IMG/VR virus record: IMGVR_UViG_3300030732_000036
Coordinates: 1-42,470 of that record
Direction: 5' to 3' (one strand)
Length of the DNA: 42,470 nt
DNA from: a virus
Below the pieces are notes generated by a model. It made no database searches, was not told the DNA's origin, and saw nothing but the letters and a program-made list of their open reading frames with translations. A program made the translations under genes and the position numbers. This document shows, piece after piece, positions 859-42,470 of the stretch (its first letter is position 1; the number at the start of each line of letters is the position of its first letter).

Positions 859-888
859 TTGTACAAATAAACCGGGCTCGGCTATACT
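859..888 (+). promoter_or_regulatory. sigma70-like promoter, rightward: TTGTAC-N18-TATACT, with the -35 inside palindrome TTTGTACAAA (858..867)
   Basis: Hexamers read directly in the 152-nt non-coding gap. Same palindrome-plus -10 module as at 5692-5720, 29435-29463 and 33069-33096. Confidence 0.45.
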
Positions 889-1009: not shown

Positions 1010-2194
1010 TTGCAATATAAAATTCTCCAAGGCGATTGCGTCGAAGCCATGCGCGCGATGCCTGATAACTCCTTCGACTCGATCGTGACCGACCCACCCT
1101 ATGAACTCGGGTTCATGGGTAAGGGCTGGGACAGTACCGGCATCGCCAATAGTGTGGAGATGTGGCGCGAGGCGCTGCGCGTGCTCAAGCCTGGCGGCCA
1201 CCTGCTGGCGTTCAGCGGCAGCCGCACCTATCACCGCATGACGTGTGCGATTGAGGATGCCGGGTTCGAGATCCGCGACCAGATCATGTGGGTCTACGGC
1301 TCGGGCTTCCCGAAGTCGCTGGACGTGAGCAAGGCAATCGACAAGGCGGCCGGCGCAGAGCGCGAGGTTGTTGGCACCAAGCTGGGGCTACCGGGCTACT
1401 CGCTTGCCGAGGACAAAGGGCGAAGCACTTACAGCGCTGAAGGGCGCAGCAGTGAGGTTGAGTGCGCAATCACCGCGCCAGCAACCGACGACGCCCGCCA
1501 GTGGTCCGGCTGGGGCACCGCCCTGAAGCCGGCGCACGAGCCTATCTGCGTGGCGCGCAAGCCGCTGGCCGGCACCGTGGCGGCGAACGTGCTGCAGTTC
1601 GGCACTGGGGCGATCAACATCGATCGGTGTCGAGTGCCTACCGATGGCGCTGATGCGCGAAACTGGTCTGGCGATCGTGGCCAGGTTGGCACTTCACGCA
1701 ATTCAGATTTTGCGTTGACGGCCGGCAGTGCTGCTGAACTCGGACGCTGGCCAGCCAACATCATCCACGATGGCAGCGACGAGGTGGTGGCGCACTTTCC
1801 GATCACGACTAGCGGCGCTGTAAAGCCCGGCACCTGTGCGGCTGCGGACGAGAACCGTCTAACCTTCGGGCAGTTTGACGGCTACGAAATGAAACCGCGT
1901 GAAAAAGACACCGGCAGCGCCGCTCGCTTCTTCTACTGCGCCAAGGCGAGCAAGAGCGACCGCGGCCCCGGCAATACTCACCCCACCGTCAAGCCGCTGG
2001 CGCTGATGCGCTACCTGCTGCGCCTGGTGACGCCGCCGGGTGGCCGTTCGCTCGATCCGTTCATGGGCAGCGGTACCACGATCGTGGCCGGCCTGCAAGA
2101 GGGCCTGTCCATGACGGGCATCGAGCTGCACGCCGAACATATCGAGATTGCGGACCGCCGCGCGGAAATCGAACTTATCGGAGACCTGCTGTGA
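1010..2194 (+). CDS. DNA methyltransferase, N6-adenine/N4-cytosine type (beta-class order: DPPY ... FxGxG)
   Basis: Motif IV is SIVTDPPY near the N-terminus and motif I is DPFMGSGTT near the C-terminus. TTG start at 1010 has GGAG 6 nt upstream and gives the typical N-terminus (M)QYKILQGDC. An in-frame ATG at 917 is an alternative start but lies inside the S1 stem. Confidence 0.85.
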   Translation: MQYKILQGDCVEAMRAMPDNSFDSIVTDPPYELGFMGKGWDSTGIANSVEMWREALRVLKPGGHLLAFSGSRTYHRMTCAIEDAGFEIRDQIMWVYGSGFPKSLDVSKAIDKAAGAEREVVGTKLGLPGYSLAEDKGRSTYSAEGRSSEVECAITAPATDDARQWSGWGTALKPAHEPICVARKPLAGTVAANVLQFGTGAINIDRCRVPTDGADARNWSGDRGQVGTSRNSDFALTAGSAAELGRWPANIIHDGSDEVVAHFPITTSGAVKPGTCAAADENRLTFGQFDGYEMKPREKDTGSAARFFYCAKASKSDRGPGNTHPTVKPLALMRYLLRLVTPPGGRSLDPFMGSGTTIVAGLQEGLSMTGIELHAEHIEIADRRAEIELIGDLL

Positions 2195-4302
2195 TGGCCA
2201 CGCCCGACACCCTCCCCGCCCTGCTCCCCGTCACCGTCGACGGCATCCCCGCCAGTATGCTCGACACCCCCCGCTGGGCGCCGTGGCGTGCGGTGTGGAA
2301 CGCCAAGAAGGAGAAATACGAGAAGATCCCCCACCGCGCCGACCGGGTGCAGTCCGGCCTGTCGAACAAGTCGAGCAAGGGCTGGTGCGCCTTCCATGTG
2401 GCCATGGCCGCCTACCTGAAGAATCCGGACCTGTTCGCCGGCGTGGGCTACCTGATGACCGGCGCGCACGATCTGGTGGCGGTGGACCTCGACCATTGCG
2501 TGCAGGACGGCGAGATCGCGCCGTGGGCGGCGGAGGTGGTGGCCAAGCTGGACAGCTACACCGAGGTCAGCCCGTCCGGCCGAGGCCTGCGGGTGATGAT
2601 CGAGGGGACCATCGAGCGGGACTGGACCAATCACGATGTGGGTATCGAGGTGTACGGCGGCGGCGACGCCCGCTTCGTCACCATCACCGGGGCCAGGCTG
2701 CCGGGCAGTCCGGGAACGGTGCGCCGGCCGCGCGGCGGGGCCATGGACGCGATCACCGCGCGCTACCGCAAGACCAAGACGGCGGCCGAGATCGAGGACC
2801 TCCACCTGCCGGCGCTGCTGGGGGCTGACGAACTGCCCGATATCAGCGAGCTGGAGATCCCGCCGCACGCGCGCAACTTCCTGATGGACGGCGCCGAGCC
2901 TGGCCGGGACCGTTCGCAAGCCCTGTTCGCCACCTCGATCGCGCTGCGCCAGTCCGGGCTCGAGCGGCAGGTGATCCTGTCCATACTGGAGGCGAACGAG
3001 CACGCCATGGAGGTGGCCATGGACCACCGGCGCCAGGATTACGACAAGGCCGTGCGCTACCTGTGGAAGGACCATTGCCAGGCCGGCGTGGCGCGGGCCG
3101 ATGGGCTCCGCCAGCTGTCCATGGACGAGTTCGACGAATTGGAGGCCCAGGAAGGGCCCGCCAAGGCCTCGCCGGTGGCGGCCGGGCAGAACGGGGTGGC
3201 TGACGACTTCGACGTGCTGGACGACGATTTTGCCGACCTGCTGGGCGTGGGCCCAAAAGTGGACCGGGCGCCGGTCAAGCTGCCGCGGTTCACCCCCTTG
3301 CCGCTGACCTCCTTCATGCACCGCAAGCCTGCGCGCTGGATCGTGCGCGGCGTGCTGCCGCAGGCGGGCCTGGTGTTGCTTTATGGCGACAGCGGGGCGG
3401 GCAAGACGTTCTTCGCGCTGGACCTGGTCGGCGCCGTGGCGCGCGGCATCGCCTGGCGCGGCCACACCGTGAGCAAAGGCCGGGTGGTCTATATCGTGGC
3501 CGAGGGCGCAACGGGCTTCCGCAATCGGGTGCTCGCCTATTGCGAGTTCAACGGCATCGAGCCGGCCGACCTCGACATTCTGGTCATCCCGGACGCACCC
3601 CAGCTGCTCGACAAGGCCCACATCAAGGAGCTGGTGCTGGCGATCAAGAAGGTCGGGCCCGTGGCGATCGTGGTGGTCGACACCTACGCCCGCGCCATGG
3701 CCGGCGCCAATGAGAACGACGCCAAGGATACGGGGCAGGCCGTTGCCCATTGCGACCTGATCCACCGCACCACCGGGGCGCTGGTGCTGCTGGTGCACCA
3801 CAGCGGCAAGGACGGCAGCCGAGGGGCGCGGGGCAGCGGGGCGCTTCGGGCGGCGGCAGACGCCGAGATTGAAGTGTTGCAATTACGCGACTACCGGGCC
3901 GCCACCGTCACCAAGATGAAGGATGGCGAGGACGGCAAGGAGTATGCGTTCAAGCTCAACGAAGTCACCATAGGGCTGGACGACGAGGGCGAGGCTATCA
4001 CCTCCTGCGTGGTCGAGGTCCGCGCCAGCGGGGCACCCGCCAAGGCCATGGAGAAGGTGCGCTTGACACCCGTGCAGCAGCTGGTGCTGAGGGCCTTTGA
4101 CACCGCCGCCGATCTGGGCGGCCAGGGCATGCACTATGCCGACATCAAGCAAGCCGTGGTCGACCAGATACCCCGCGATCTGGAGAAGAAAAAGGACAAT
4201 CGCCACCGCGATGTGGGCAATGCGATCGAGGCTTTGGTCGGTTATGGTTATCTAAATAGCATCGAAGGTGGCATGTTGGTACGTGCAGAAAATAACGTGT
4301 AG
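2194..4302 (+). CDS. bifunctional primase-polymerase (AEP/prim-pol N-terminus) fused to a RepA/DnaB-like (AAA_25-type) helicase
   Basis: N-terminal half has VAVDLDHC (DxD) and YTEVSPSGRGL motifs. C-terminal half has Walker A (GDSGAGKT), Walker B (IVVVDTYARAM) and LVHHSGKDGSRGARGS. ATG 2194 overlaps the upstream stop; GTG 2191 is an alternative start. Confidence 0.85.
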   Translation: MATPDTLPALLPVTVDGIPASMLDTPRWAPWRAVWNAKKEKYEKIPHRADRVQSGLSNKSSKGWCAFHVAMAAYLKNPDLFAGVGYLMTGAHDLVAVDLDHCVQDGEIAPWAAEVVAKLDSYTEVSPSGRGLRVMIEGTIERDWTNHDVGIEVYGGGDARFVTITGARLPGSPGTVRRPRGGAMDAITARYRKTKTAAEIEDLHLPALLGADELPDISELEIPPHARNFLMDGAEPGRDRSQALFATSIALRQSGLERQVILSILEANEHAMEVAMDHRRQDYDKAVRYLWKDHCQAGVARADGLRQLSMDEFDELEAQEGPAKASPVAAGQNGVADDFDVLDDDFADLLGVGPKVDRAPVKLPRFTPLPLTSFMHRKPARWIVRGVLPQAGLVLLYGDSGAGKTFFALDLVGAVARGIAWRGHTVSKGRVVYIVAEGATGFRNRVLAYCEFNGIEPADLDILVIPDAPQLLDKAHIKELVLAIKKVGPVAIVVVDTYARAMAGANENDAKDTGQAVAHCDLIHRTTGALVLLVHHSGKDGSRGARGSGALRAAADAEIEVLQLRDYRAATVTKMKDGEDGKEYAFKLNEVTIGLDDEGEAITSCVVEVRASGAPAKAMEKVRLTPVQQLVLRAFDTAADLGGQGMHYADIKQAVVDQIPRDLEKKKDNRHRDVGNAIEALVGYGYLNSIEGGMLVRAENNV

Positions 4303-4316
4303 GTAAAATTATGCAT

Positions 4317-4437
4317 GCTTCATTTGCTTCATTTGCTTCAAACTGCTTCATTTGAAGCAAATCACCCTTGCTTCATTTGCTTCACTCGCTTCACCCCTAA
4401 AGGGGTGATGAAGCGAAGTGAAGCAAAAAGGTGAAGC
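4317..4437. repeat. iteron array: 7 direct GCTTCA and 4 inverted TGAAGC copies; probable replication origin
   Basis: GCTTCA starts at 4317, 4326, 4335, 4345, 4370, 4379 and 4388. TGAAGC starts at 4353, 4409, 4419 and 4432. Spacing is 9-10 bp. Central palindrome is GCTTCACCCCTAAAGGGGTGATGAAGC. The array has AT-rich flanks and lies directly after the primase-helicase gene. Confidence 0.7.
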
Positions 4438-4475
4438 AGTACAGGGCGTGTAAATTTTTACAGATTGGAGTGGTC

Positions 4476-4814
4476 ATGACCTGGTCGGACGAATCAAGGC
4501 AATCGCGCGGTTACGACGCGGCGTGGGAGAAGGTCAGGGCCCGGGTGGTGGAGAGGGACAAAGGCCTGTGCCAGGCTTGCCTCGTGCATGACCGGGTGAG
4601 CATCGGGCAAGAGGTGGACCACAGGGTGCCCAAGGCCGAATGCGCTAAGCGCGGGTGGACCCGGGCCCAGACCGATGCCGAGTCGAACCTGTGGCTGCTG
4701 TGCAAGCCCTGCCACAAGGCCAAGACGGCGAGGGAGAACGGCCGGGTGCTGGTGCCCAAGGTCGCCTACGGGGTGGACGGATGGCCGCTTGACAACCCCG
4801 AAAGGCTGGTTTAG
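4476..4814 (+). CDS. HNH endonuclease (packaging-associated type)
   Basis: Motif pattern CQAC...EVDHRVP...NLWLLCKPCHKAKT. GGAG lies 5 nt upstream of ATG 4476. The longer ORF from 4431 would start inside the iterons. Confidence 0.85.
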   Translation: MTWSDESRQSRGYDAAWEKVRARVVERDKGLCQACLVHDRVSIGQEVDHRVPKAECAKRGWTRAQTDAESNLWLLCKPCHKAKTARENGRVLVPKVAYGVDGWPLDNPERLV

Positions 4815-4849: not shown

Positions 4850-4934
4850 AAGGGCTTTGCCTTGCGTTCTCAGACGGGAGACCGTTGGTTGCGACCACAA
4901 CCCGAGAACGTGAGGCAAAGCCCTTTTTCTATTT
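4850..4934 (+). terminator. structured hairpin S2: 22-bp stem (4850-4871 / 4904-4925), 32-nt loop with two mini-hairpins, then TTTTTCTATTT
   Basis: All 22 positions pair as plus-strand RNA; the two non-Watson-Crick positions are G-U wobbles. A U-tract follows immediately, then GGAG and ATG 4947. Confidence 0.6.
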
Positions 4935-4946
4935 CCGGAGCGAAAC

Positions 4947-5539: not shown

Positions 5540-5691
5540 GGCGGGTCGAAACTTTAAAAGCTTGACTTTTGGAAGGACCGGCGCTAGCCTTCGATTTAAC
5601 GCAAAGGCATAATTTCTTGGGGAAACATTACTGAGATACAACACAATTCAGGGCAATCGGAGGGGTAGCGGGACCTACGAGCTACATGCAA

Positions 5692-5719
5692 ATTATAGCA
5701 CGAAACCGCATTTGTACAA
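5692..5719 (-). promoter_or_regulatory. leftward extended -10 promoter: TTGTAC-N16-(TGc)TATAAT, with the -35 inside palindrome TTTGTACAAA (5711..5720)
   Basis: Minus strand reads TTATTTGTACAAATGCGGTTTCGTGCTATAATTTGCATG. It points away from terS and against all flanking genes. Confidence 0.45.
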
Positions 5720-5726
5720 ATAATTT

Positions 5727-6215
5727 ATGACCACGAAAACCGCCCCCCGCAGAGCCCGATCCGACAGCGCCACCGCCGCGATAAACGCCGCAAAAAATGC
5801 CGCGCTTGGCGACCTTATGCCCCCCGAGCACGTAAAAATTTCCCCTGAAGTTCTGCCCGACTACATCGCCATCGTCCGCGCCCGCGCGCGCGACGAGTGG
5901 AGCGAACTGGACCTGATCGTCGCCGCCCAGCTGGCCGAGGTGATCGGGCAGCAGCGCGAGCAGACTGCGAAAATCACGCTCGAAGGCGACGTGGTGGAAA
6001 ACATGAAAGGCACCTTGGTTGCCAACCCCCGGGTGACGATTCTCGAACGCCTGGCCGGCCGACAAATGGCCTACATGCGCACGCTGCAGATGGGCGGCCG
6101 GGTGCCCGGCACCGCCGGCGACAAGCGCAAGAAGCAAGGCGCGCGGCAGCTTGAACGTGGCGCCCGCGCCGCGCACCAACAAGCCGCCGACGAAACCAAC
6201 AACCTGCTGGCGTAA
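5727..6215 (+). CDS. terS: terminase small subunit (P27-family-like)
   Basis: Lies immediately upstream of terL and is coupled to it by TAATG. Basic N- and C-termini. The call rests on position and loose similarity only. Confidence 0.6.
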   Translation: MTTKTAPRRARSDSATAAINAAKNAALGDLMPPEHVKISPEVLPDYIAIVRARARDEWSELDLIVAAQLAEVIGQQREQTAKITLEGDVVENMKGTLVANPRVTILERLAGRQMAYMRTLQMGGRVPGTAGDKRKKQGARQLERGARAAHQQAADETNNLLA

Positions 6216-7786
6216 TGGCCGCGCGAGCAAAAAAGCCGATGACCCGCGGCGAGCGGGTGATTGCGTTCATCGAAACCTACTGCATCGTGCCCGAGGGCGA
6301 CTTGATCGGCCAGCCGATGCGGCTCGAACCGTTCCAGCGCAAGTGGGTGCTGGAGGTGTACGACAACCCGCACGGCACCCACACCGCCGTGCTGTGCATC
6401 GGCCGCAAGAACGGCAAGACCGCGCTGATCGCGGCCCTTCTGCTGTGCCACATCGCCGGCCCCGAGGCGGTGCAGAATTCCCAGATCGTCAGCGGCGCCA
6501 TGTCCAAGGACCAGGCGGCCATCGTGTTCAAGCTGGCGCGCAAGATGGTCGAAATGTCCGGCGACCTGGCCGCCCGGGTGCGGGTGTTCCCCTCGGTGAA
6601 ATCCTTGCTCGGCCTGTCGAAGAACGTTGAGTACAACGCGCTGTCCGCCGAGGCGAAGACGAAGCACGGGCTCTCGCCGATCCTGGTGATCTTCGACGAG
6701 ATGGGCCAGGTGCGAGGGCCGATGAACGACTTCGTGACCGCGCTCGAGACCGCGCAAGGTGCGTATGACCACGCCCTGAAGTTCATCATCTCGACCCAAG
6801 CGCCGAGCGACGCCGACATGCTGTCCATCATCATCGACGCGCAGCTCGACCCGCTCAACACCCCGGACCCCCAGGTGGTGGTGCACCTCTACACCGCGCC
6901 GATGACGCGCAAGGGCCCGGACGGCAAGGACATCGAGATCCCTTTCGACGACGAGGACGGCATGCGCGCGGCGAACCCGGCGCTCGGGGTGTTCCGGTCC
7001 ATGAACGACCTGCGCAAGCTGTGCACGAAGGCCCACACCACGCCGTCGTTCGAGCCCGAGTTCCGGAACCTGAACCTGAACCAGCGGGTGGAGGCGGCGG
7101 CGCCGTTCGTGCCGCGGTCGGTGTGGATGGCGAACGGCGCCGACCCGGTGGCCAAGCCGCGCCCGCGCGTCTATGGCGGCCTGGACCTCTCGGCCGTCAA
7201 CGACTTGACCGCCCAAGTCCTGGTAGACGCCGACGACGGCAGCGTGTGGCCAACGTTCTGGTTGCCGGCGCACGGGCTCAAGGAGAAGGCGAAAGCGGAC
7301 AAAGTTCCCTATGACATTTGGGAGAAGCAAGGATTCTTGCAGACAACCCCCGGAAAAGCGATAGAATACGAGTTTATAGCCTTGCATTTGCGCAAAGTGT
7401 TCGACGAGAACGACGTGCAGCTGTTCGGTTTCGACCGTTACAACATGAAATTCCTGAAGCCTTGGCTCGCAAAAGCCGGGTTTAGCCAAGAGGAAATTGA
7501 CAAATTTGTTGAATTCGGGCAGGGTACGGCCAGCATGACCCCCGCCCTGCGCGACCTGGAGGTAAAATTGTTGAACGCACAACTTAAGCACGGCAACCAC
7601 CCTGTGCTCAACATGTGCGCAGCCAACGCCAAGGTGGTAGGCGACAGCGGCGCCCGCAAGTTCGACAAGCGCACCATCCGCGGTCGCATCGACGGTATGG
7701 TGGCCCTGGCCATCGCGGCGGGCGTGATGCCGCAGCCGGTCGAGGAAGAGTCCGGCACCCTTGAGGATTACCTGGCCACGGCATGA
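6215..7786 (+). CDS. terL: terminase large subunit
   Basis: Walker A-like motif CIGRKNGKT and Walker B-like motif ILVIFDEMG, followed by a C-terminal nuclease-type region. Sits directly upstream of the portal gene. Confidence 0.9.
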   Translation: MAARAKKPMTRGERVIAFIETYCIVPEGDLIGQPMRLEPFQRKWVLEVYDNPHGTHTAVLCIGRKNGKTALIAALLLCHIAGPEAVQNSQIVSGAMSKDQAAIVFKLARKMVEMSGDLAARVRVFPSVKSLLGLSKNVEYNALSAEAKTKHGLSPILVIFDEMGQVRGPMNDFVTALETAQGAYDHALKFIISTQAPSDADMLSIIIDAQLDPLNTPDPQVVVHLYTAPMTRKGPDGKDIEIPFDDEDGMRAANPALGVFRSMNDLRKLCTKAHTTPSFEPEFRNLNLNQRVEAAAPFVPRSVWMANGADPVAKPRPRVYGGLDLSAVNDLTAQVLVDADDGSVWPTFWLPAHGLKEKAKADKVPYDIWEKQGFLQTTPGKAIEYEFIALHLRKVFDENDVQLFGFDRYNMKFLKPWLAKAGFSQEEIDKFVEFGQGTASMTPALRDLEVKLLNAQLKHGNHPVLNMCAANAKVVGDSGARKFDKRTIRGRIDGMVALAIAAGVMPQPVEEESGTLEDYLATA

Positions 7787-29434: not shown

Positions 29435-29462
29435 ATAATAGCACAACCAAAAATTTGTACAA
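29435..29462 (-). promoter_or_regulatory. leftward extended -10 promoter: TTGTAC-N16-(TGc)TATTAT, overlapping near-palindrome TTTGTACAAG (29454..29463)
   Basis: Minus strand reads AGCTTGTACAAATTTTTGGTTGTGCTATTATCCC. It lies immediately after the SNF2 stop codon. Confidence 0.5.
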
Positions 29463-29465
29463 GCT

Positions 29466-31490: not shown

Positions 31491-31867
31491 GGCGGCACCT
31501 CGTCGACTTCATCACCGAAGGCAGCGCGCACGATGGCGCGGCACACCGCTACCAGCACGGTTTCCCCATAGACCTGGTCGCCGTCGCAGGGCTTGTCTTG
31601 ACTGCGGACATACCAGCCGCCACGGGGCCAGGTCGGGACCAATTCAGGGCGGTACTGTTCGATCAGCGGCCCGCACATCCGCCAGCTGGTGCTGTAGTCG
31701 ATGACGCCGACAGCCGTGGGGGCGCCGCCGAGGCGCTGGGCGACCAGTACGCAATGGTAATCGTCGGAGCGCTGCACCCGGCGGATCTCTAGCGATTCGG
31801 GTGGTACGCCCTCGGCGCGCGCGACCCAGTAGTCGAGGGCGGGGCCGATCAGGTTAGCGGTTTTCAT
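31481..31867 (-). CDS. DUF2591 / NinX-like protein
   Basis: The N-terminus MKTANLIGPALDYWVARAEG is typical of the family. ATGA coupling. Confidence 0.7.
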   Translation of the reverse strand: MKTANLIGPALDYWVARAEGVPPESLEIRRVQRSDDYHCVLVAQRLGGAPTAVGVIDYSTSWRMCGPLIEQYRPELVPTWPRGGWYVRSQDKPCDGDQVYGETVLVAVCRAIVRAAFGDEVDEVPPCA

Positions 31868-32109
31868 TTGACCACCTCGGAGACCCGCGCGGCCAGCATG
31901 GCATCAGCGATCTTGTACGCCTCTTCGGCGGCGTTCTCCGGGTATCGGAATTTCTCCACGCAACCCGGCAGTGCAGCCTTTGCGAAATCGTCGCGCAGAC
32001 CTGAGGGGTGGTTTGGAGAATTCAGCACGGCCAGCACCTCGGCGAGAGTCAGCCCGAAGTGTTCGGCCAGATGGTCGATTACTTCGGATTTGCTAAGTAT
32101 TCTTTTCAT
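31864..32109 (-). CDS. hypothetical protein (81 aa)
   Basis: ATGA coupling at both ends. Confidence 0.55.
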   Translation of the reverse strand: MKRILSKSEVIDHLAEHFGLTLAEVLAVLNSPNHPSGLRDDFAKAALPGCVEKFRYPENAAEEAYKIADAMLAARVSEVVK

Positions 32110-33068: not shown

Positions 33069-33096
33069 ATAATAGCACAAATAAACAGTTGTACTA
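33069..33096 (-). promoter_or_regulatory. leftward extended -10 promoter: TAGTAC-N16-(TGc)TATTAT
   Basis: Minus strand reads GATTAGTACAACTGTTTATTTGTGCTATTATTCTCCC. The -35 overlaps the polA stop codon. Confidence 0.5.
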
Positions 33097-35553
33097 ATCT
33101 TTTTTGTAGCGATACGCCTCGAACCCGGCGGCGGCCAGCGGCATGTCCGGTGCCCACGGCGGCGGCGCACACAGCAGCGCGGCCAGGTGCTCGGCGTTGA
33201 ACTCGGGCCGGTCGGGCGCTTCGCACAAAACCTCGTCGTGAACTGTCAGGATAATTTCGTATCCGAGCGAGGGTGCGTCGTCCCCTTCACGTTCGAAATA
33301 CGTGGCGCCGTCCTCGAATTCCCCGTCGACGAAGTGGCCGCCGTGGATCGCAGGCATGTTGCACGCCATCACATCGCGCGCCACGGCCTGGCAGACGTTC
33401 TCGAAGAACTTGCCGCCGTACGAATCCAGCCGGGCCCACTTGCGGGTGTACTGGTTCTGGCCCATGTAGGTGATCTTGGTCCGGCCCAGATTCACCTGCT
33501 CGTCAACCTCCACCGCGTCGATATCGACGGTCTCGGCCATGTCCTTTTTCTTGCGCTTCTCGGGCTCCAGCCGAGGCGAGGGGTAGCACAGCGCGCGACC
33601 CGAGGGCAGGACGATGCGCAGCCAGGCACCGTCCCTGCGCACCTTCACCTTGCCGCACGGGATCGTCACGCCCGGGGTGCATATCGCCGCGCGCACCGCG
33701 CCGTCGAGTTCCTTCCAGTAGGCTTTGATGCTGGCGTGGCCGCTGCGCCAGCCTAGCTTGAACGACTCGCACACCAGCCAGGTTTTTTCCAGCAGACCCG
33801 ACTTCGCCACCGGATCGCGGCCGGCCTTGCGGTGCCACGCCAGCATGATGTTCGCCTGGCCCCACACCTCGCCCGGGATGAACTTGGCGGCGCGCTGGGC
33901 CATCTCGTCGAGGTCGATTCCGTAGTTCAAGGCGAAGGTGACGAACGCACCCACGCCGCCCTCGTAGCCCAGCGCCAGCTCCTGGACCTTGCCGATTTGC
34001 CGCTGGTCCTTCGTCACGTCCCCCGGCGCCACGTTGAACGACTTGCCATAGGACATCTTGTACAGGTCGTGCCCCTTGCGGACGGCCTCGCCCTTGGCGT
34101 CGACGGCCAGCTCGGGTGCCTTGTTGCGCCGGCACAGCGCGAAGTACTCCGGGCCGGTCAGCCACTTGCCGGCGGCGGTCTTCACCGTGTCGAACTCGGC
34201 GAAGGCCTTCAGCTTCCACGACTCGCCGGCCAGCCACGCCTGGTCGCGGCCCTCGATGTTCGACAGGTCGGCCACCACCAGCTTGCGCCCCGGCGGCGCG
34301 GCGATGCACCCCCTGATCGTCGAGCTGGTGGCGTGCATGACGTTGTCGAAGACCAGGTGCGCGAAGCCGCCCTTGATGGCCTTGATCGCCAGCTCGACCA
34401 GGGCGGAGGCCAGCAGTCCCCGGCTCGGCAAGTTCTGGGGCTGGAACATGCGCCCAGCCCACCGCCCAGTGCGCGCGGCGCCGTCGAACTGCAGCAGGCC
34501 GCGTAGCCGGCTGTCCGAGATGCTGGTGCAGCGCACCAGGGTGCGGTACTTGCTGGTGCTGGTGGTCGAGGCCTGCAACCGCACGCGCAGCAGTTCGCGC
34601 AAGCCCTCGGGCAGGTCCGGGTCGGCGATACGCCGCTCCAGGGTGGCCGATTGCATGTCGGGCAGGTCCACCCCGTACTCGGCCAGGATGTGATACAGCA
34701 GGGCGTCGCGCTTCGTCGCGCTCTCCACCTCGCCGACTGTCAGGGCGAAGGCCTGGTCCTGCAGGTCGGCCTGTGCCACGTCCACCGCGTTGATCGCGCA
34801 CTCGGCCAGCTCCAGGTCGATGAAGACGCCCCGATCGTTAATGCGCTGGTCGAGGTGCCACAGCGCCAGCTCGGGGCCGCGGTAGTTCCACATAGGCATG
34901 AGCTTGGACGCGGCGCGCATCGCCACGATGTCCTGGCCGGCGTAGATAAGGAATTGCCGCCACTCGGTCGGGTGGGTCTCGCGCGTGGCGCGGCCTGTCC
35001 ACTCGAGCGCGGCCAGCTCCTTGGCGGCCCTGTAGGCGGCGGGCTTCTCGCCGGCGGCCTTCTTCCGGAACTTGAACGCCTGCGGCTTGCAGAACAGTTG
35101 GATCAGCGCCTTGCCCGCCTTGTCCTTCGCCTTGTCGCTGTCCAGCTTCAGGGCCTCGCAAAGGGTCTCCAGCTTGCCCGGCAGGCCGTGGGCCAGCGCT
35201 TGGACCATCGTGTCGCGCCAGCGGTGCAGCGGGATGTCCAGACCGTGCTTGCGCTCGAGCGTGCGGTCGAAGCGGGAATTGTGGGCCCACACCTCGATAT
35301 CGTCGTCGGCCAGCGCGGCGTCGATGTCCAGGCCGACCATGATGTCGTGCGACTCGGGCAGCAGATCGTCGCCGACCAACAGCCATTCCTCGCCGCCCGG
35401 GGTGAGATCGCGCACCAGCACCGCGCCGTCGCCCAGCGCCAGTGCGCGGATCATGATCTCGGCCGCCGGGTCGTCGCTGTAGCGGTCAACGCCGCAGGTG
35501 ATGGGCGTGGCGGAGAAGGTCTCGGTGTCGAGCCAGAGGCGGGGCGCGGTCAC
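33094..35553 (-). CDS. family A DNA polymerase with 3'-5' exonuclease domain
   Basis: Exo I is LDTETF, Exo II is HNSRFD and Exo III is YAGQDIV. Pol motif A is VVADLSNIEGR, motif B is RQIGKVQELALGY and motif C is LTVHDEV. Confidence 0.92.
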   Translation of the reverse strand: MTAPRLWLDTETFSATPITCGVDRYSDDPAAEIMIRALALGDGAVLVRDLTPGGEEWLLVGDDLLPESHDIMVGLDIDAALADDDIEVWAHNSRFDRTLERKHGLDIPLHRWRDTMVQALAHGLPGKLETLCEALKLDSDKAKDKAGKALIQLFCKPQAFKFRKKAAGEKPAAYRAAKELAALEWTGRATRETHPTEWRQFLIYAGQDIVAMRAASKLMPMWNYRGPELALWHLDQRINDRGVFIDLELAECAINAVDVAQADLQDQAFALTVGEVESATKRDALLYHILAEYGVDLPDMQSATLERRIADPDLPEGLRELLRVRLQASTTSTSKYRTLVRCTSISDSRLRGLLQFDGAARTGRWAGRMFQPQNLPSRGLLASALVELAIKAIKGGFAHLVFDNVMHATSSTIRGCIAAPPGRKLVVADLSNIEGRDQAWLAGESWKLKAFAEFDTVKTAAGKWLTGPEYFALCRRNKAPELAVDAKGEAVRKGHDLYKMSYGKSFNVAPGDVTKDQRQIGKVQELALGYEGGVGAFVTFALNYGIDLDEMAQRAAKFIPGEVWGQANIMLAWHRKAGRDPVAKSGLLEKTWLVCESFKLGWRSGHASIKAYWKELDGAVRAAICTPGVTIPCGKVKVRRDGAWLRIVLPSGRALCYPSPRLEPEKRKKKDMAETVDIDAVEVDEQVNLGRTKITYMGQNQYTRKWARLDSYGGKFFENVCQAVARDVMACNMPAIHGGHFVDGEFEDGATYFEREGDDAPSLGYEIILTVHDEVLCEAPDRPEFNAEHLAALLCAPPPWAPDMPLAAAGFEAYRYKKD

Positions 35554-39963: not shown

Positions 39964-40326
39964 TTACGCGGTCAGTTCGATTTCTTCGATGCGCGCCAGC
40001 ACCGCCGCGTAGTCGTCGGCCTTGATCTCGCCGCCCTTGGTGGCGCCGAATTCCTTCATCAGGTCGATACCGGCCTGCTTACCGCTGGCCTTCATCAGCT
40101 TCGTGAGGGCGGGGGCGATGTCGCCATCGTAGGTCAGCGTGGGGGTCTTGACCTCTTCGACCTTGACCTTGGTGTCGGTCTTGGTCTTCGTGTCCGTCTT
40201 GGTCTTGACTTCGGGTTCCTGGGTTGCGGCACCTTGCGAAGCGGTGCGGCCGGCGGTCAGGGTGATGGCGGCGGCCAGCTCGCGGATAGCCGAGGCGTGT
40301 TCGTTGATTGCGATTTCGAGAGACAT
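39964..40326 (-). CDS. hypothetical protein with KTKTDT tandem repeat (120 aa); first gene of the leftward operon
   Basis: GAAGGAAA RBS. An 18-nt tandem duplication encodes [12 protein letters not shown]. Confidence 0.6.
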
Positions 40327-40368: not shown

Positions 40369-40397
40369 ATCTTTGCACAACCGGAAGTTTGTTGCAA
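40369..40397 (-). promoter_or_regulatory. candidate leftward early promoter: TTGCAA-N17-(TGc)AAAGAT
   Basis: Shares the GGTTGTGC pre -10 block with the 29435 promoter. The -10 hexamer is weak. Confidence 0.25.
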
Positions 40398-40433
40398 GCA
40401 CTTTTTACTAATTATTTTTGTACGAAATTTTAC

Positions 40434-40462
40434 TTGTATATGTGGCGGCTTCTGTGCATAAT
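40434..40462 (+). promoter_or_regulatory. candidate rightward early promoter: TTGTAT-N17-CATAAT, flanked by TTTGTACGAA (40417-26) and TTTGTACAAA (40467-76)
   Basis: Hexamers read directly. The perfect palindrome sits at about +5 to +14, between the promoter and the GGAG RBS of the Cro-like gene. Confidence 0.4.
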
Positions 40463-40491
40463 CGCGTTTGTACAAATAACCGGAGAACATC

Positions 40492-40734
40492 ATGGCGAGG
40501 AAGAAAAAGGCGGCGAACGGCGTGTCGCTAGTCATTGAAAAGGCGAACCCCAAGACCCAGGCCCAGGTGGCGCTGGATATGGGCGTCACCCAGCAGGTGG
40601 TAAGCCATTGGCTGAAGGTGGGCTATATGCCCTTGATCCGGGCCCGCGACGCCGAGGCCCTGTATGGTGTGCCGCGGCGCAAGCTGGTCGACCCCAAGCT
40701 GCTGGGGATGCTCGACGACAAGGGGGCGCGGTGA
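40492..40734 (+). CDS. Cro / YdaS-like helix-turn-helix regulator
   Basis: GGAG RBS. HTH segment TQAQVALDMGVTQQVVSHWLKVGYMP. First gene of the rightward operon. Confidence 0.7.
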   Translation: MARKKKAANGVSLVIEKANPKTQAQVALDMGVTQQVVSHWLKVGYMPLIRARDAEALYGVPRRKLVDPKLLGMLDDKGAR

Positions 40735-41910: not shown

Positions 41911-42470
41911 ATGACAGACGGTGAGATTAACGAAATAACGATGGGCAAGCTCGGGAAGTGGCCGTCATTCGAGGCGCAGGCTTGGGCTTGCAGAGTGGCG
42001 CATGCGGTCCTCGCAGCGCAGCAAGACAGCGACTGCCGCAAGTATTGCCAGCGTGAAGCGGACCAGGCCGCCCGGCCTGCCGCTGCGGACGACCATCTGC
42101 CTAGCCCGACCGGCGAACAGCTTTACACGATGGTAACAAGCCGCTTCAAGTCGGGCAGCTTCCCCTGGGCGACGGTGGCGGAGAGCGGGAAGGAAGCCTG
42201 GAGCGCGGCGGCTGCTGAACTGGCGTTTGCGCCGGACACGATCATGGCGAAATATTCCCCGCGACCTGCCGCTGCGGACGCAGGCGGGCTGTTGGATGCT
42301 GACCTGTTCGAAGAAATGGTGGAGGAAGGCTACACAGCCTTTGCCGAGGACAGCACCGCCTGGCGCAGCGACCCAGAGGCCACACATTCTTCCGGGCGCG
42401 AATCGTTCGCAGTTGCATTGCGGGCTGCGCTCGCCGTTCGACCAACTGCTTGCAGCGCAGATGGTCAGGG
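41911..42470 (+). CDS. hypothetical protein, N-terminal part of a wrap-around ORF (continues at 1..283)
   Basis: GGAGG RBS. I translated the frame by hand to the window end and found no stop. Contains a duplicated RPAAAD motif. Confidence 0.6.
   Translation, partial: MTDGEINEITMGKLGKWPSFEAQAWACRVAHAVLAAQQDSDCRKYCQREADQAARPAAADDHLPSPTGEQLYTMVTSRFKSGSFPWATVAESGKEAWSAAAAELAFAPDTIMAKYSPRPAAADAGGLLDADLFEEMVEEGYTAFAEDSTAWRSDPEATHSSGRESFAVALRAALAVRPTACSADGQ
42372..42470. repeat. terminal direct repeat, copy 2 (identical to 1..99)
   Basis: See copy 1. Confidence 0.95.

Follow-up and report, generated by a model that had tools for sequence, protein, structure and literature searches.

The phage genome and its early control region

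The DNA considered here is IMG/VR virus record IMGVR_UViG_3300030732_000036, positions 1 to 42,470, from an uncultivated phage; this whole stretch of 42,470 bases is called the window in the following. A 10-bp palindrome, TTTGTACAAA (the box), recurs between its genes and may well be the operator of a small Cro-like helix-turn-helix (HTH) protein of 80 aa that is encoded at 40492-40734 (+). By its predicted gene content, the window is a complete HK97-like siphovirus with a polA/DUF2800 replication module. Its G+C content is 60-68%, and an exact direct repeat of 99 nt is found at both ends (1-99 and 42372-42470). This repeat reflects overlapping assembly ends of a genome that is circular or concatemeric and has a true length of about 42,371 bp; an open reading frame (ORF) starting at 41911 crosses the genome-end junction.

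Two early operons diverge from a control region that contains the promoters PL and PR. The leftward operon (-, from 40326 down to about 28465) encodes a DUF2800 nuclease, an Enc34-type SSB, a family A DNA polymerase (polA), NinX, and an SNF2 helicase. The rightward operon (+) begins with the HTH gene at 40492, continues across the window ends, and runs on into genes for an N6/N4 DNA methylase (with a TTG start codon at 1010), a primase/helicase of the AAA_25 type (2191-4302) and an HNH endonuclease (4431-4814). The genes of the small and large terminase subunits (5727-7786, +) are followed by portal, capsid, tail and lysis genes on the plus strand. No CI-type repressor or integrase was recognised among the genes of the window. 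Near-identity searches of 50,697 deposited phage genomes found no close relative, and the best polymerase and terminase matches in such genomes are 45-56% identical; a cultured close relative therefore does not exist in this collection.

For comparison, 13 related uncultivated phages were used: L001-L004 (L003 and L004 extended as L162 and L163), L160/161, the closer phage IMGVR_UViG_3300010399_000056 (designated R; L168-L170, L185), L186-L188, and L191-L195. The early regions of L186-L188 are closest to the window, with 77% identity for polA and 60-63% for the HTH protein. All relatives have a common layout, in which the Cro-like gene is the first rightward gene and faces a small gene that is followed by DUF2800, SSB and polA. 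A scan of genome contigs with DUF2800 yielded no match.

The palindrome is enriched between genes

The whole window was scanned for TTTGTACAAA with at most one mismatch, and the result was compared with 100 shuffles. Seven matches were found where 0.18 were expected, and none of the shuffles reached this number. The first-pass annotation had considered such an AT-rich 10-mer unexpected in this genome, and the shuffle-controlled scan bears this out. Exact copies lie at 858-867, 5711-5720 and 40467-40476, as annotated, and copies with one mismatch are located between genes at 29454 and 40417. The two remaining matches (17411, TTTGAACAAA; 36110, TTTGTTCAAA) are inside coding sequence and altered in the central GTAC; they look like chance occurrences. 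A sixth intergenic copy at 33088-33097 reads GTTGTACTAA and matches TTTGTACAAA in eight of the ten positions. Its coordinates had been given correctly, whereas the string AGTTGTACTA assigned to it was shifted by one base. On the minus strand, this copy reads TAGTAC, since it overlaps the TAG stop codon of polA. The core TTGTACAA occurs four times in the window, compared to 0.14 expected occurrences.

The six copies at 858, 5711, 29454, 33088, 40417 and 40467 all lie within the approximately 5.5% of the genome that is intergenic, in agreement with the earlier description. The statement that the palindrome marks every module boundary goes too far, as boxes are present in only five of the about 19 intergenic gaps of at least 40 nt. 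Literature matches to the 10-mer were dominated by Gateway attB primers.

A palindrome of this kind might be the target of DNA-level enzymes, i.e. of a methyltransferase of the phage, a restriction system specific for TGTACA, or the machinery for recombination or packaging. TGTACA, the core of the box, is typical of type II restriction sites, one copy adjoins cos and terS, and the phage encodes an N6/N4 methylase. However, TGTACA occurs at 11 sites, several of them within genes, and is thus neither avoided nor confined, and the cos-proximal copy is missing from close relatives with the same terminase. Moreover, the identical box is accompanied by methylases of different families, namely N6_N4 in the window and L193, C5 in L187, and both in L188, for which reason a restriction or methylation target was rejected. 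Altogether, this explanation is close to excluded.

The boxes are parts of six promoter-like modules

Read on the proper strand, the boxes are parts of six modules that resemble promoters. The module with the best consensus, at 5692-5719 (-), has the form TTGTAC-16-(GTGC)TATAAT; its box occupies 5711-5720, and its direction is leftward, so that cos lies ahead of it and terS (5727) behind it. An internal promoter at 29435-29462 (-) directly after the stop of the SNF2 helicase gene reads TTGTACAAA-16-GTGCTATTAT, i.e. TTGTAC-16-GTGC TATTAT (box 29454-29463), and its counterpart after polA at 33069-33096 (-) reads TAGTACAAC-16-GTGCTATTAT, i.e. TAGTAC-16-GTGC TATTAT (box 33088-33097), the TAG being the polA stop codon. 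A promoter at 859-888 (+), termed the leader promoter, consists of TTGTAC-18-TATACT with the -10 hexamer at 883-888 and no TG extension. The box over its -35 position (858-867) is an exact TTTGTACAAA embedded in the 12-bp palindrome ATTTGTACAAAT (857-868). The last two modules are PR at 40434-40462 (+), with TTGTAT-17-TGTGCATAAT and the -10 hexamer CATAAT at 40457-40462, and PL at 40369-40397 (-), with TTGCAA-17-(GTGC)AAAGAT. The distances reported previously, exactly 16 nt from GTGCTAT(A/T)AT at 5711, 29454 and 33088 and 18 nt from TATACT at 859 on the plus strand, are correct.

The composite motif T[TA]GTAC-N12-GTGCTAT[AT]AT, with its 16-nt spacer between the hexamers, occurs three times in the window, in each case on the minus strand (5692-5719, 29435-29462, 33069-33096), and not once in 200 simulated sequences. 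A scan of IMG/VR with this motif gave 75 single matches in unrelated records, which were attributed to chance.

The -10 hexamers of the six modules (TATAAT, TATTAT twice, TATACT, CATAAT and AAAGAT) all contain an A at position 2 and a T at position 6. A TRTG/TGn extension in the form of GTGC precedes the -10 hexamer in four of them (5711, 29454, 33088 and PL). In TGTGCATAAT of PR, the TG is located one base too far upstream and fails a strict extended -10 test, and the leader promoter lacks a TG. A CA/T start motif 7 nt downstream of the -10 hexamer is conserved. As a -35 hexamer, TTGTAC agrees with TTGACA in three of six positions (TTG only), with spacers of 16-18 nt in the window and of 12-14 nt at leader promoters of relatives. 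The orientation suits the downstream genes at five of the six modules; the post-SNF2 and post-polA promoters each face the next leftward gene, and PR and PL are directed into the two early operons. The assignment of the palindrome to the -35 position of putative sigma-70-type promoters with extended -10 elements is backed by the comparative evidence. The proposed geometry of a class II (CRP-type) activator site was rejected, because the dyad centre lies at about -30.5 (16-nt spacer) to about -32.5 (18-nt spacer), and at about +4 and -47.5 at PR, but not near -41.5.

Dyads of the form ACAA-N8-TTGT were found at 29443-29458, 33077-33092 and 40377-40392, which are the -35 to -10 spacers of the post-SNF2 promoter, the post-polA promoter and PL (three occurrences, 0.23 expected). 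They may represent a second, 434-like operator format or simply the box plus the TRTG motif. As a replacement for the compact dyad, this wider operator was rejected, being absent around the leader box, the 5711 box and the box at 40467.

The module at 5711 is exceptional in several respects. It is antisense to the rightward operon and is part of an insertion of about 85 nt between cos and terS (5600-5726) that is found in this phage only; the insertion is absent from L184, L185, L189 and L190, the TerS proteins of which are 72-80% identical. For the predicted transcript of about 97 nt from this promoter to cos, the fold is no better than that of shuffles (z = 0.07). A small RNA was rejected, as there is no significant fold, Rfam match, plausible ORF or homologue of the insert. 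A cassette that transposed recently and an antisense promoter are two possible explanations of the module. From the contig ends of R, L080/L081, L184 and L190, cos can be placed at about 5572-5600. The probable cos region at 5545-5605 contains the conserved element GGGCGGGTCGAAA...CTTGACTTTT..AAGGAC, which matches the contig end of R, and CCTTCGATTTAACGC, which matches the contig starts of L080, L081, L184, L185 and L190.

The similarity between the modules allows for a simple explanation, according to which the box is promoter sequence only: the -35 region of one duplicated cassette whose copies have stayed alike through common descent or gene conversion, with no dedicated reader. Between copies and between phages, the similarity indeed spans an upstream A-tract, the T-rich spacer, TGTGCTAT(A/T)AT and the CATCG start region. 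Furthermore, in a register shifted by one base, TGTACA agrees with TTGACA in four of six positions, and the recent insertion at 5711 indicates that cassettes move. We nevertheless regard this explanation as rather unlikely in the light of the arrangement of boxes in related phages.

Boxes are retained at positions that do not serve as -35 elements

Two copies of the palindrome, 50 bp apart, had been described as bracketing the rightward promoter. The copies at 40417 and 40467 do flank PR; the description was incomplete, since PR has three boxes, spaced by 16 and 34 bp. Box 1 (40417-40426, TTTGTACGAA) is located between PL and PR, 16 bp upstream of box 2, and is kept in R, L186-L188 and L192-L194. 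Box 2 (from 40434) is degenerate in the window, where it forms the -35 hexamer TTGTAT of PR, and is a full TTGTACAA in R and L191-L194. Box 3 (40467-40476) is an exact palindrome that begins 4 nt past the -10 hexamer of PR (its core TTGTACAA 5 nt past it) and spans the inferred transcription start; relative to this start, box 1 is at about -52 to -43 and box 3 at about -2 to +8. An exact TTGTACAA at the same 5-nt offset is found in the window, R, L191, L192 and L194. The conserved order at PR is therefore box 1, 16 bp, box 2 as -35 element, 17 nt, CATAAT/CATACT, 5 nt, box 3, and this three-box layout is kept in eight other phages. At PL, the -35 region TTGCAACAA(A/G) is common to most relatives examined, irrespective of their box type; it differs in L186-L188, L192, L001, L002 and L004.

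In the relatives, promoters were found at the matching junctions, namely after polA, after SNF2 (where covered), before the leader RNA described below, and in the divergent early region. The post-SNF2 cassette has homologues in R (L170 16788), L162 (19491), L192 (10923) and L193 (19753), and the post-polA promoter in L187 (likewise TAGTAC), L186, R, L191-L194, L002, L162 and L163. The leader box occupies the same position in L186-L188, R, L191, L193 and L194. Its distance from the -10 hexamer is 18 nt in the window and in L186-L188 and 14 nt in R, L191, L193 and L194; the leader promoters of L195 and L002 carry their own box types 12-13 nt from the -10 hexamer. Conservation in related phages, which the first-pass annotation had named as a check on the motif and its spacing, thus holds for the places of the promoters, whereas the sequence of the box is phage-specific and the spacing at the leader promoter varies (12, 13, 14 or 18 nt).

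A duplicated promoter cassette does not account well for these findings. At PR, a perfect box at +1 and a near copy between PL and PR have no -10 element of their own, and both are kept in phages with no more than about 66% identity in this region. In six of the ten phages with a leader promoter, the box is 12-14 nt from the -10 hexamer, which is too close for a -35 element; such spacings would be incompatible with -35 function and acceptable for an operator.

The box co-varies with the recognition helix of the Cro-like protein

The product of 40492-40734, the first gene of the PR operon, is the best candidate for binding the box. A profile of nine homologues matches Cro proteins of the PDB (Xfaso 1, N15, P22 and lambda; entries 5w8y, 3bd1, 2hin, 1rzs and 2a63) with E-values down to 5e-8. 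Pfam YdaS_toxin matches all nine members of the family and P22_Cro eight of nine; the window protein alone stays below the Pfam cut-offs. Membership of the predicted protein in the Cro family is supported by these matches. When homologues of the HTH protein were sought by a word-based search, nothing but the query was found, and an IMG/VR scan with the HTH alignment found no further members. In L001-L004, L191 and L195, several Cro-like proteins are tandem double-HTH proteins of 120-146 aa as opposed to a single domain of 72-80 aa; a covalent pseudo-dimer is possible.

The promoters of each relative carry a phage-specific dyad TTG-NN-CAA, and the dyad type can be compared with the recognition helix of the same phage. 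In the window and L186-188, the helix V(T/E)QQ(V/T)VSHW is found together with the box A-T-TTGTACAA-A-T; in R and L193, CTQQN(V/I)SLW with A-C-TTGTACAA-G-T; and in L191, L192 and L194, (T/K)QQA(V/I)(S/G)(V/I)W with TTGTACAA and looser flanks. The other helices are SGQAVGTW in L001 (box TTGCGCAA), SHQAVEGW in L002 (TTGCACAA), SHQAVGVY in L195 (GCTTGCGCAAGC and TTGCACAAG), TTQAVRQW in L003/L162 (CTTGCGCAAG), and TRQAVGQW in L004/L163 (CTTGCGTA and ACTTGCACAAGT). All nine phages with T/E/K-Q-Q at helix positions H0-H2, i.e. with a Gln at H1 (window, R, L186-188, L191-194), have the central GTAC of TTGTACAA. All five phages with G, H, T or R at H1 (L001, L002, L003/L162, L004/L163, L195) have GCGC, GCAC or GCGT (TTGCGCAA, TTGCACAA or TTGCGT). 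The box type therefore fits the recognition helix in 14 of 14 phages, which are not phylogenetically independent. Within the Gln-Gln group, the flanks follow as well: helices ending in VSHW occur with T-TTGTACAA-A and those ending in (V/I)SLW (R, L193) with C-TTGTACAA-G. For Cro proteins, a code-like co-variation of helix and operator is established (PMC6649833).

With respect to DUF2800, R is as distant from the window (56% identity) as are the phages without TTGTAC (57-59%), and the link between helix and box is therefore not one of simple overall relatedness. Boxes that are 3-11 kb away from the cro gene show the same type as the near ones; the association is therefore not just the result of linkage or overall relatedness. 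The changes of the box between phages are mostly symmetric (flank T..A to C..G, centre TA to CG), with the dyad broken in TTGCACAA and CTTGCGTA. Neither these symmetric changes nor the correspondence of box type and Cro helix type would be expected if drift or gene conversion acted on a duplicated cassette. Thus, the view that the palindrome is more than a -35 element is backed by comparison. The earlier suggestion that the HTH protein is its binder gains support from the co-variation and from the retention of boxes at positions other than -35.

Could another protein read the box? A host transcription factor or a further phage protein, for example the product of the first PL gene (39964-40326), would be conceivable. 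This gene is conserved and in cI position, and the TTG..CAA arms are invariant across the family. However, no DNA-binding domain was detected in its product (no HTH or CI match in Pfam, PHROGs and PDB), and a host factor would not account for phage-specific boxes that track the helix of the phage's own HTH protein. Another putative regulator (31864-32109) has no homologue in the box-carrying relatives checked (R, L186-L188), and these relatives differ in their type of methylase, which makes both weaker candidates. We consider a different reader very unlikely.

A conserved leader RNA precedes the methylase gene

The leader promoter is followed by an RNA of about 100 nt (890-1005, +), the leader RNA, located directly 5' of the methylase gene. 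It is predicted to be structured and terminator-like: a 21-bp stem carries two small apical hairpins and is followed by a U-tract. The predicted free energy is -69.5 kcal/mol (z = -5 compared to shuffles). By means of a covariance model, the leader RNA was found in ten phages, always just 5' of the methylase/primase genes; besides the window, these are R (L168 45-161), L002 (3080-3196, -), L186 (61-175, -), L187 (2957-3070, -), L188 (4999-5113, -), L191 (5091-5209, -), L193 (4937-5051, -), L194 (4217-4334, -) and L195 (6084-6192, -). Compensatory changes occur at 12 of 31 base pairs. The 5' sequence GCCAAGCC pairs with the apical sequence GGCUUGGC, and a compensatory change from G:C to A:U is found in this pairing. 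No Rfam family matches the leader RNA. The -10 hexamer of the leader promoter and the gap of 6-8 nt (7 in the window) to the 5' end GCCAAG of the RNA are conserved in the ten phages.

The leader RNA may act in attenuation or antitermination or as a small RNA. A more specific proposal is that leader box and RNA/terminator (890-1005) together make up a novel switch, acting by promoter-proximal antitermination or attenuation, that controls the methylase, primase and late genes; in this switch, a box-bound protein or the RNA would decide on read-through. We regard this proposal as speculative and quite improbable. Its logic would be similar to that of lambda PR'/Q/6S RNA and the put RNAs of HK022, with a Cro-like protein and an unrelated RNA taking their place. 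A gene for a Q-like protein upstream of the leader promoter was rejected as a candidate, as the upstream gene is not conserved.

After the HNH gene, a long G+C-rich hairpin (GGGCTTTGCCT...AGGCAAAGCCC) followed by TTTTTCTATTT was observed at 4855-4935 (+); it is strongly terminator-like and located on the way from the early-right to the late genes. The path into the late genes thus crosses the leader terminator and this second strong terminator. Just 3' of the primase/helicase gene, at 4303-4430, there are about a dozen GCTTCA/TGAAGC repeats in both orientations, which look like iterons and make this site a candidate replication origin. Analogous repeat arrays beside primase and HNH genes were found in L002 (372-441) and L189 (3690-3890, TTTACAT repeats).

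The composition of the leader promoters bears on the sign of the regulation. They have a -10 hexamer and no usable -35 element, and all but that of L002 also lack a TG extension. The Cro-like protein could therefore be an activator or a dual regulator, which represses PR via the box at +1 and activates the box promoters, notably the leader promoter, by replacing the -35 contact, thereby driving an early-to-middle/late cascade. The leader promoters precede the only route into the late genes, and with its centre at about -30, the dyad is placed similarly to the T4 MotA box. A first early gene product that acts as a middle activator is common phage logic, as exemplified by phi29 p4, Mu Mor and T4 MotA. 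On the other hand, face-specific activation fits poorly with the variable distance between box and -10 hexamer among homologous leader promoters, the internal promoters are already near-consensus extended -10 promoters that should need no activator, and Cro-family proteins are known as repressors. No MotA/AsiA-like family was detected when about 35 proteins encoded in the early and replication regions were compared with Pfam and PHROGs. A T4 MotA-type middle promoter box was rejected, because the box is symmetric and no MotA/AsiA homologues are present among the scanned proteins. Activation or dual control by the Cro-like protein thus appears unlikely.

A model for early shut-off

Operators over a -35 element, a spacer or a start are repressive, and Cro proteins are repressors; negative autoregulation is therefore the simplest model. 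We propose, with a probability of roughly 55%, that the box combines the functions of a -35 element and of an operator for the Cro-like dimer, which would mediate negative autoregulation at PR plus shut-off of the secondary promoters. In the box (A)TTTGTACAAA(T), the TTG would serve as a weak -35 element for the host sigma-70 polymerase at near-identical cassettes, which would depend mainly on the extended -10 element TGTGCTATAAT, and the whole dyad would be the operator of the Cro-family HTH dimer encoded at 40492-40734. Early in infection, the host polymerase would fire PL, PR and the secondary promoters. The accumulating Cro-like protein would then occupy the three boxes of PR (upstream, -35 and +1) and shut down its own operon, and its presence at the post-polA, post-SNF2, leader and 5711 boxes would turn these promoters down. 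The outcome would be a genome-wide early shut-off in a phage without CI. Binding and the negative sign of regulation are inferred here from the sequences and positions of the boxes, their enrichment and conservation, and the co-variation.

Several observations weigh against this model. PL has no phage-specific box, and L186-188 and L193 have a degenerate box 3. The relatedness among the 14 phages of the co-variation set reduces its weight, and the cro gene physically adjoins three of the boxes. With 10-12 bp, the dyad is short compared to typical operators of Cro dimers (14-18 bp). The whole cassette of about 50 bp including the T-rich spacer is conserved, and not the box alone. Without TG extension and usable -35 element, the leader promoters look activator-dependent and not repressible. 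Finally, the 22-kb late operon sits downstream of a box-carrying leader promoter and two predicted strong terminators, and its transcription would be unexplained if all box promoters were repressed.

If the box is an operator, the 40492-40734 protein should discriminate DNA containing TTTGTACAAA from TTTGCGCAAA. The model would provide a regulatory map, comprising six promoters and one regulator with its operators, for HK97-like polA/DUF2800 phages of about 42 kb, a large group without cultivated members (contigs with DUF2800 number roughly 4,500), in which a Cro-type protein may serve as genome-wide regulator without CI and a conserved leader RNA may gate late gene expression. The natural series of matched helices and operators (centre TA vs CG, flanks T/A vs C/G) could make it possible to include a compact 12-bp operator in the Cro recognition code.

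Comparison with known systems

The arrangement is most readily compared with Cro and OR of the lambdoid phages lambda, 434, P22 and N15. In both cases, a Cro-family HTH protein is encoded by the first rightward early gene beside divergent promoters, three imperfect dyads overlap the -35 element and start of PR, and residues of the recognition helix co-vary with operator bases (the 'Cro evolutionary code', PMC6649833). Unlike in lambdoid phages, no CI partner, integrase or sign of lysogeny was found here. Lambdoid operators comprise 14-18 bp with half-sites at the outer ends, whereas the dyads described here are compact (10-12 bp) with abutting half-sites (TTGT|ACAA). Furthermore, extra operators would be located 3-11 kb off in secondary promoters, and PL lacks a specific box. 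The Gln-Gln helix start and the ACAA half-site presumably recall 434.

Phage-specific boxes near -30 in place of a -35 element, with a good and often extended -10 element downstream, are also typical of T4 middle promoters. In contrast to the dyad, which is found at +1 as well and at variable spacing, the MotA box is asymmetric and requires MotA plus sigma remodelling by AsiA. The stoperators of mycobacteriophage L5 are many short repressor sites dispersed in short intergenic gaps, through which one phage protein exerts genome-wide control. They are asymmetric 13-mers that act in an orientation-dependent manner by blocking elongation, and their reader is the immunity repressor of a temperate phage. 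The dispersed intergenic sites are alike in both systems; those of the window are symmetric and located in promoter cores.

With regard to deployment, a parallel is provided by KorA of RP4, a small HTH dimer that binds a symmetric 12-bp operator, GTTTAGCTAAAC, at seven promoters of one replicon; these operators overlap core promoter elements, including those of its own promoter (PMC2665229). A 12-bp palindrome is therefore sufficient for an HTH dimer. KorA belongs to an IncP plasmid system and not to a phage, and the likeness considered here is one of deployment. The promoter element that KorA operators overlap is the -10 and not the -35, and KorA works together with KorB. Altogether, the core idea of the first-pass annotation is supported, though not proven, by the comparative evidence, which points to a putative Cro/operator system whose sites are dispersed as in the case of KorA.

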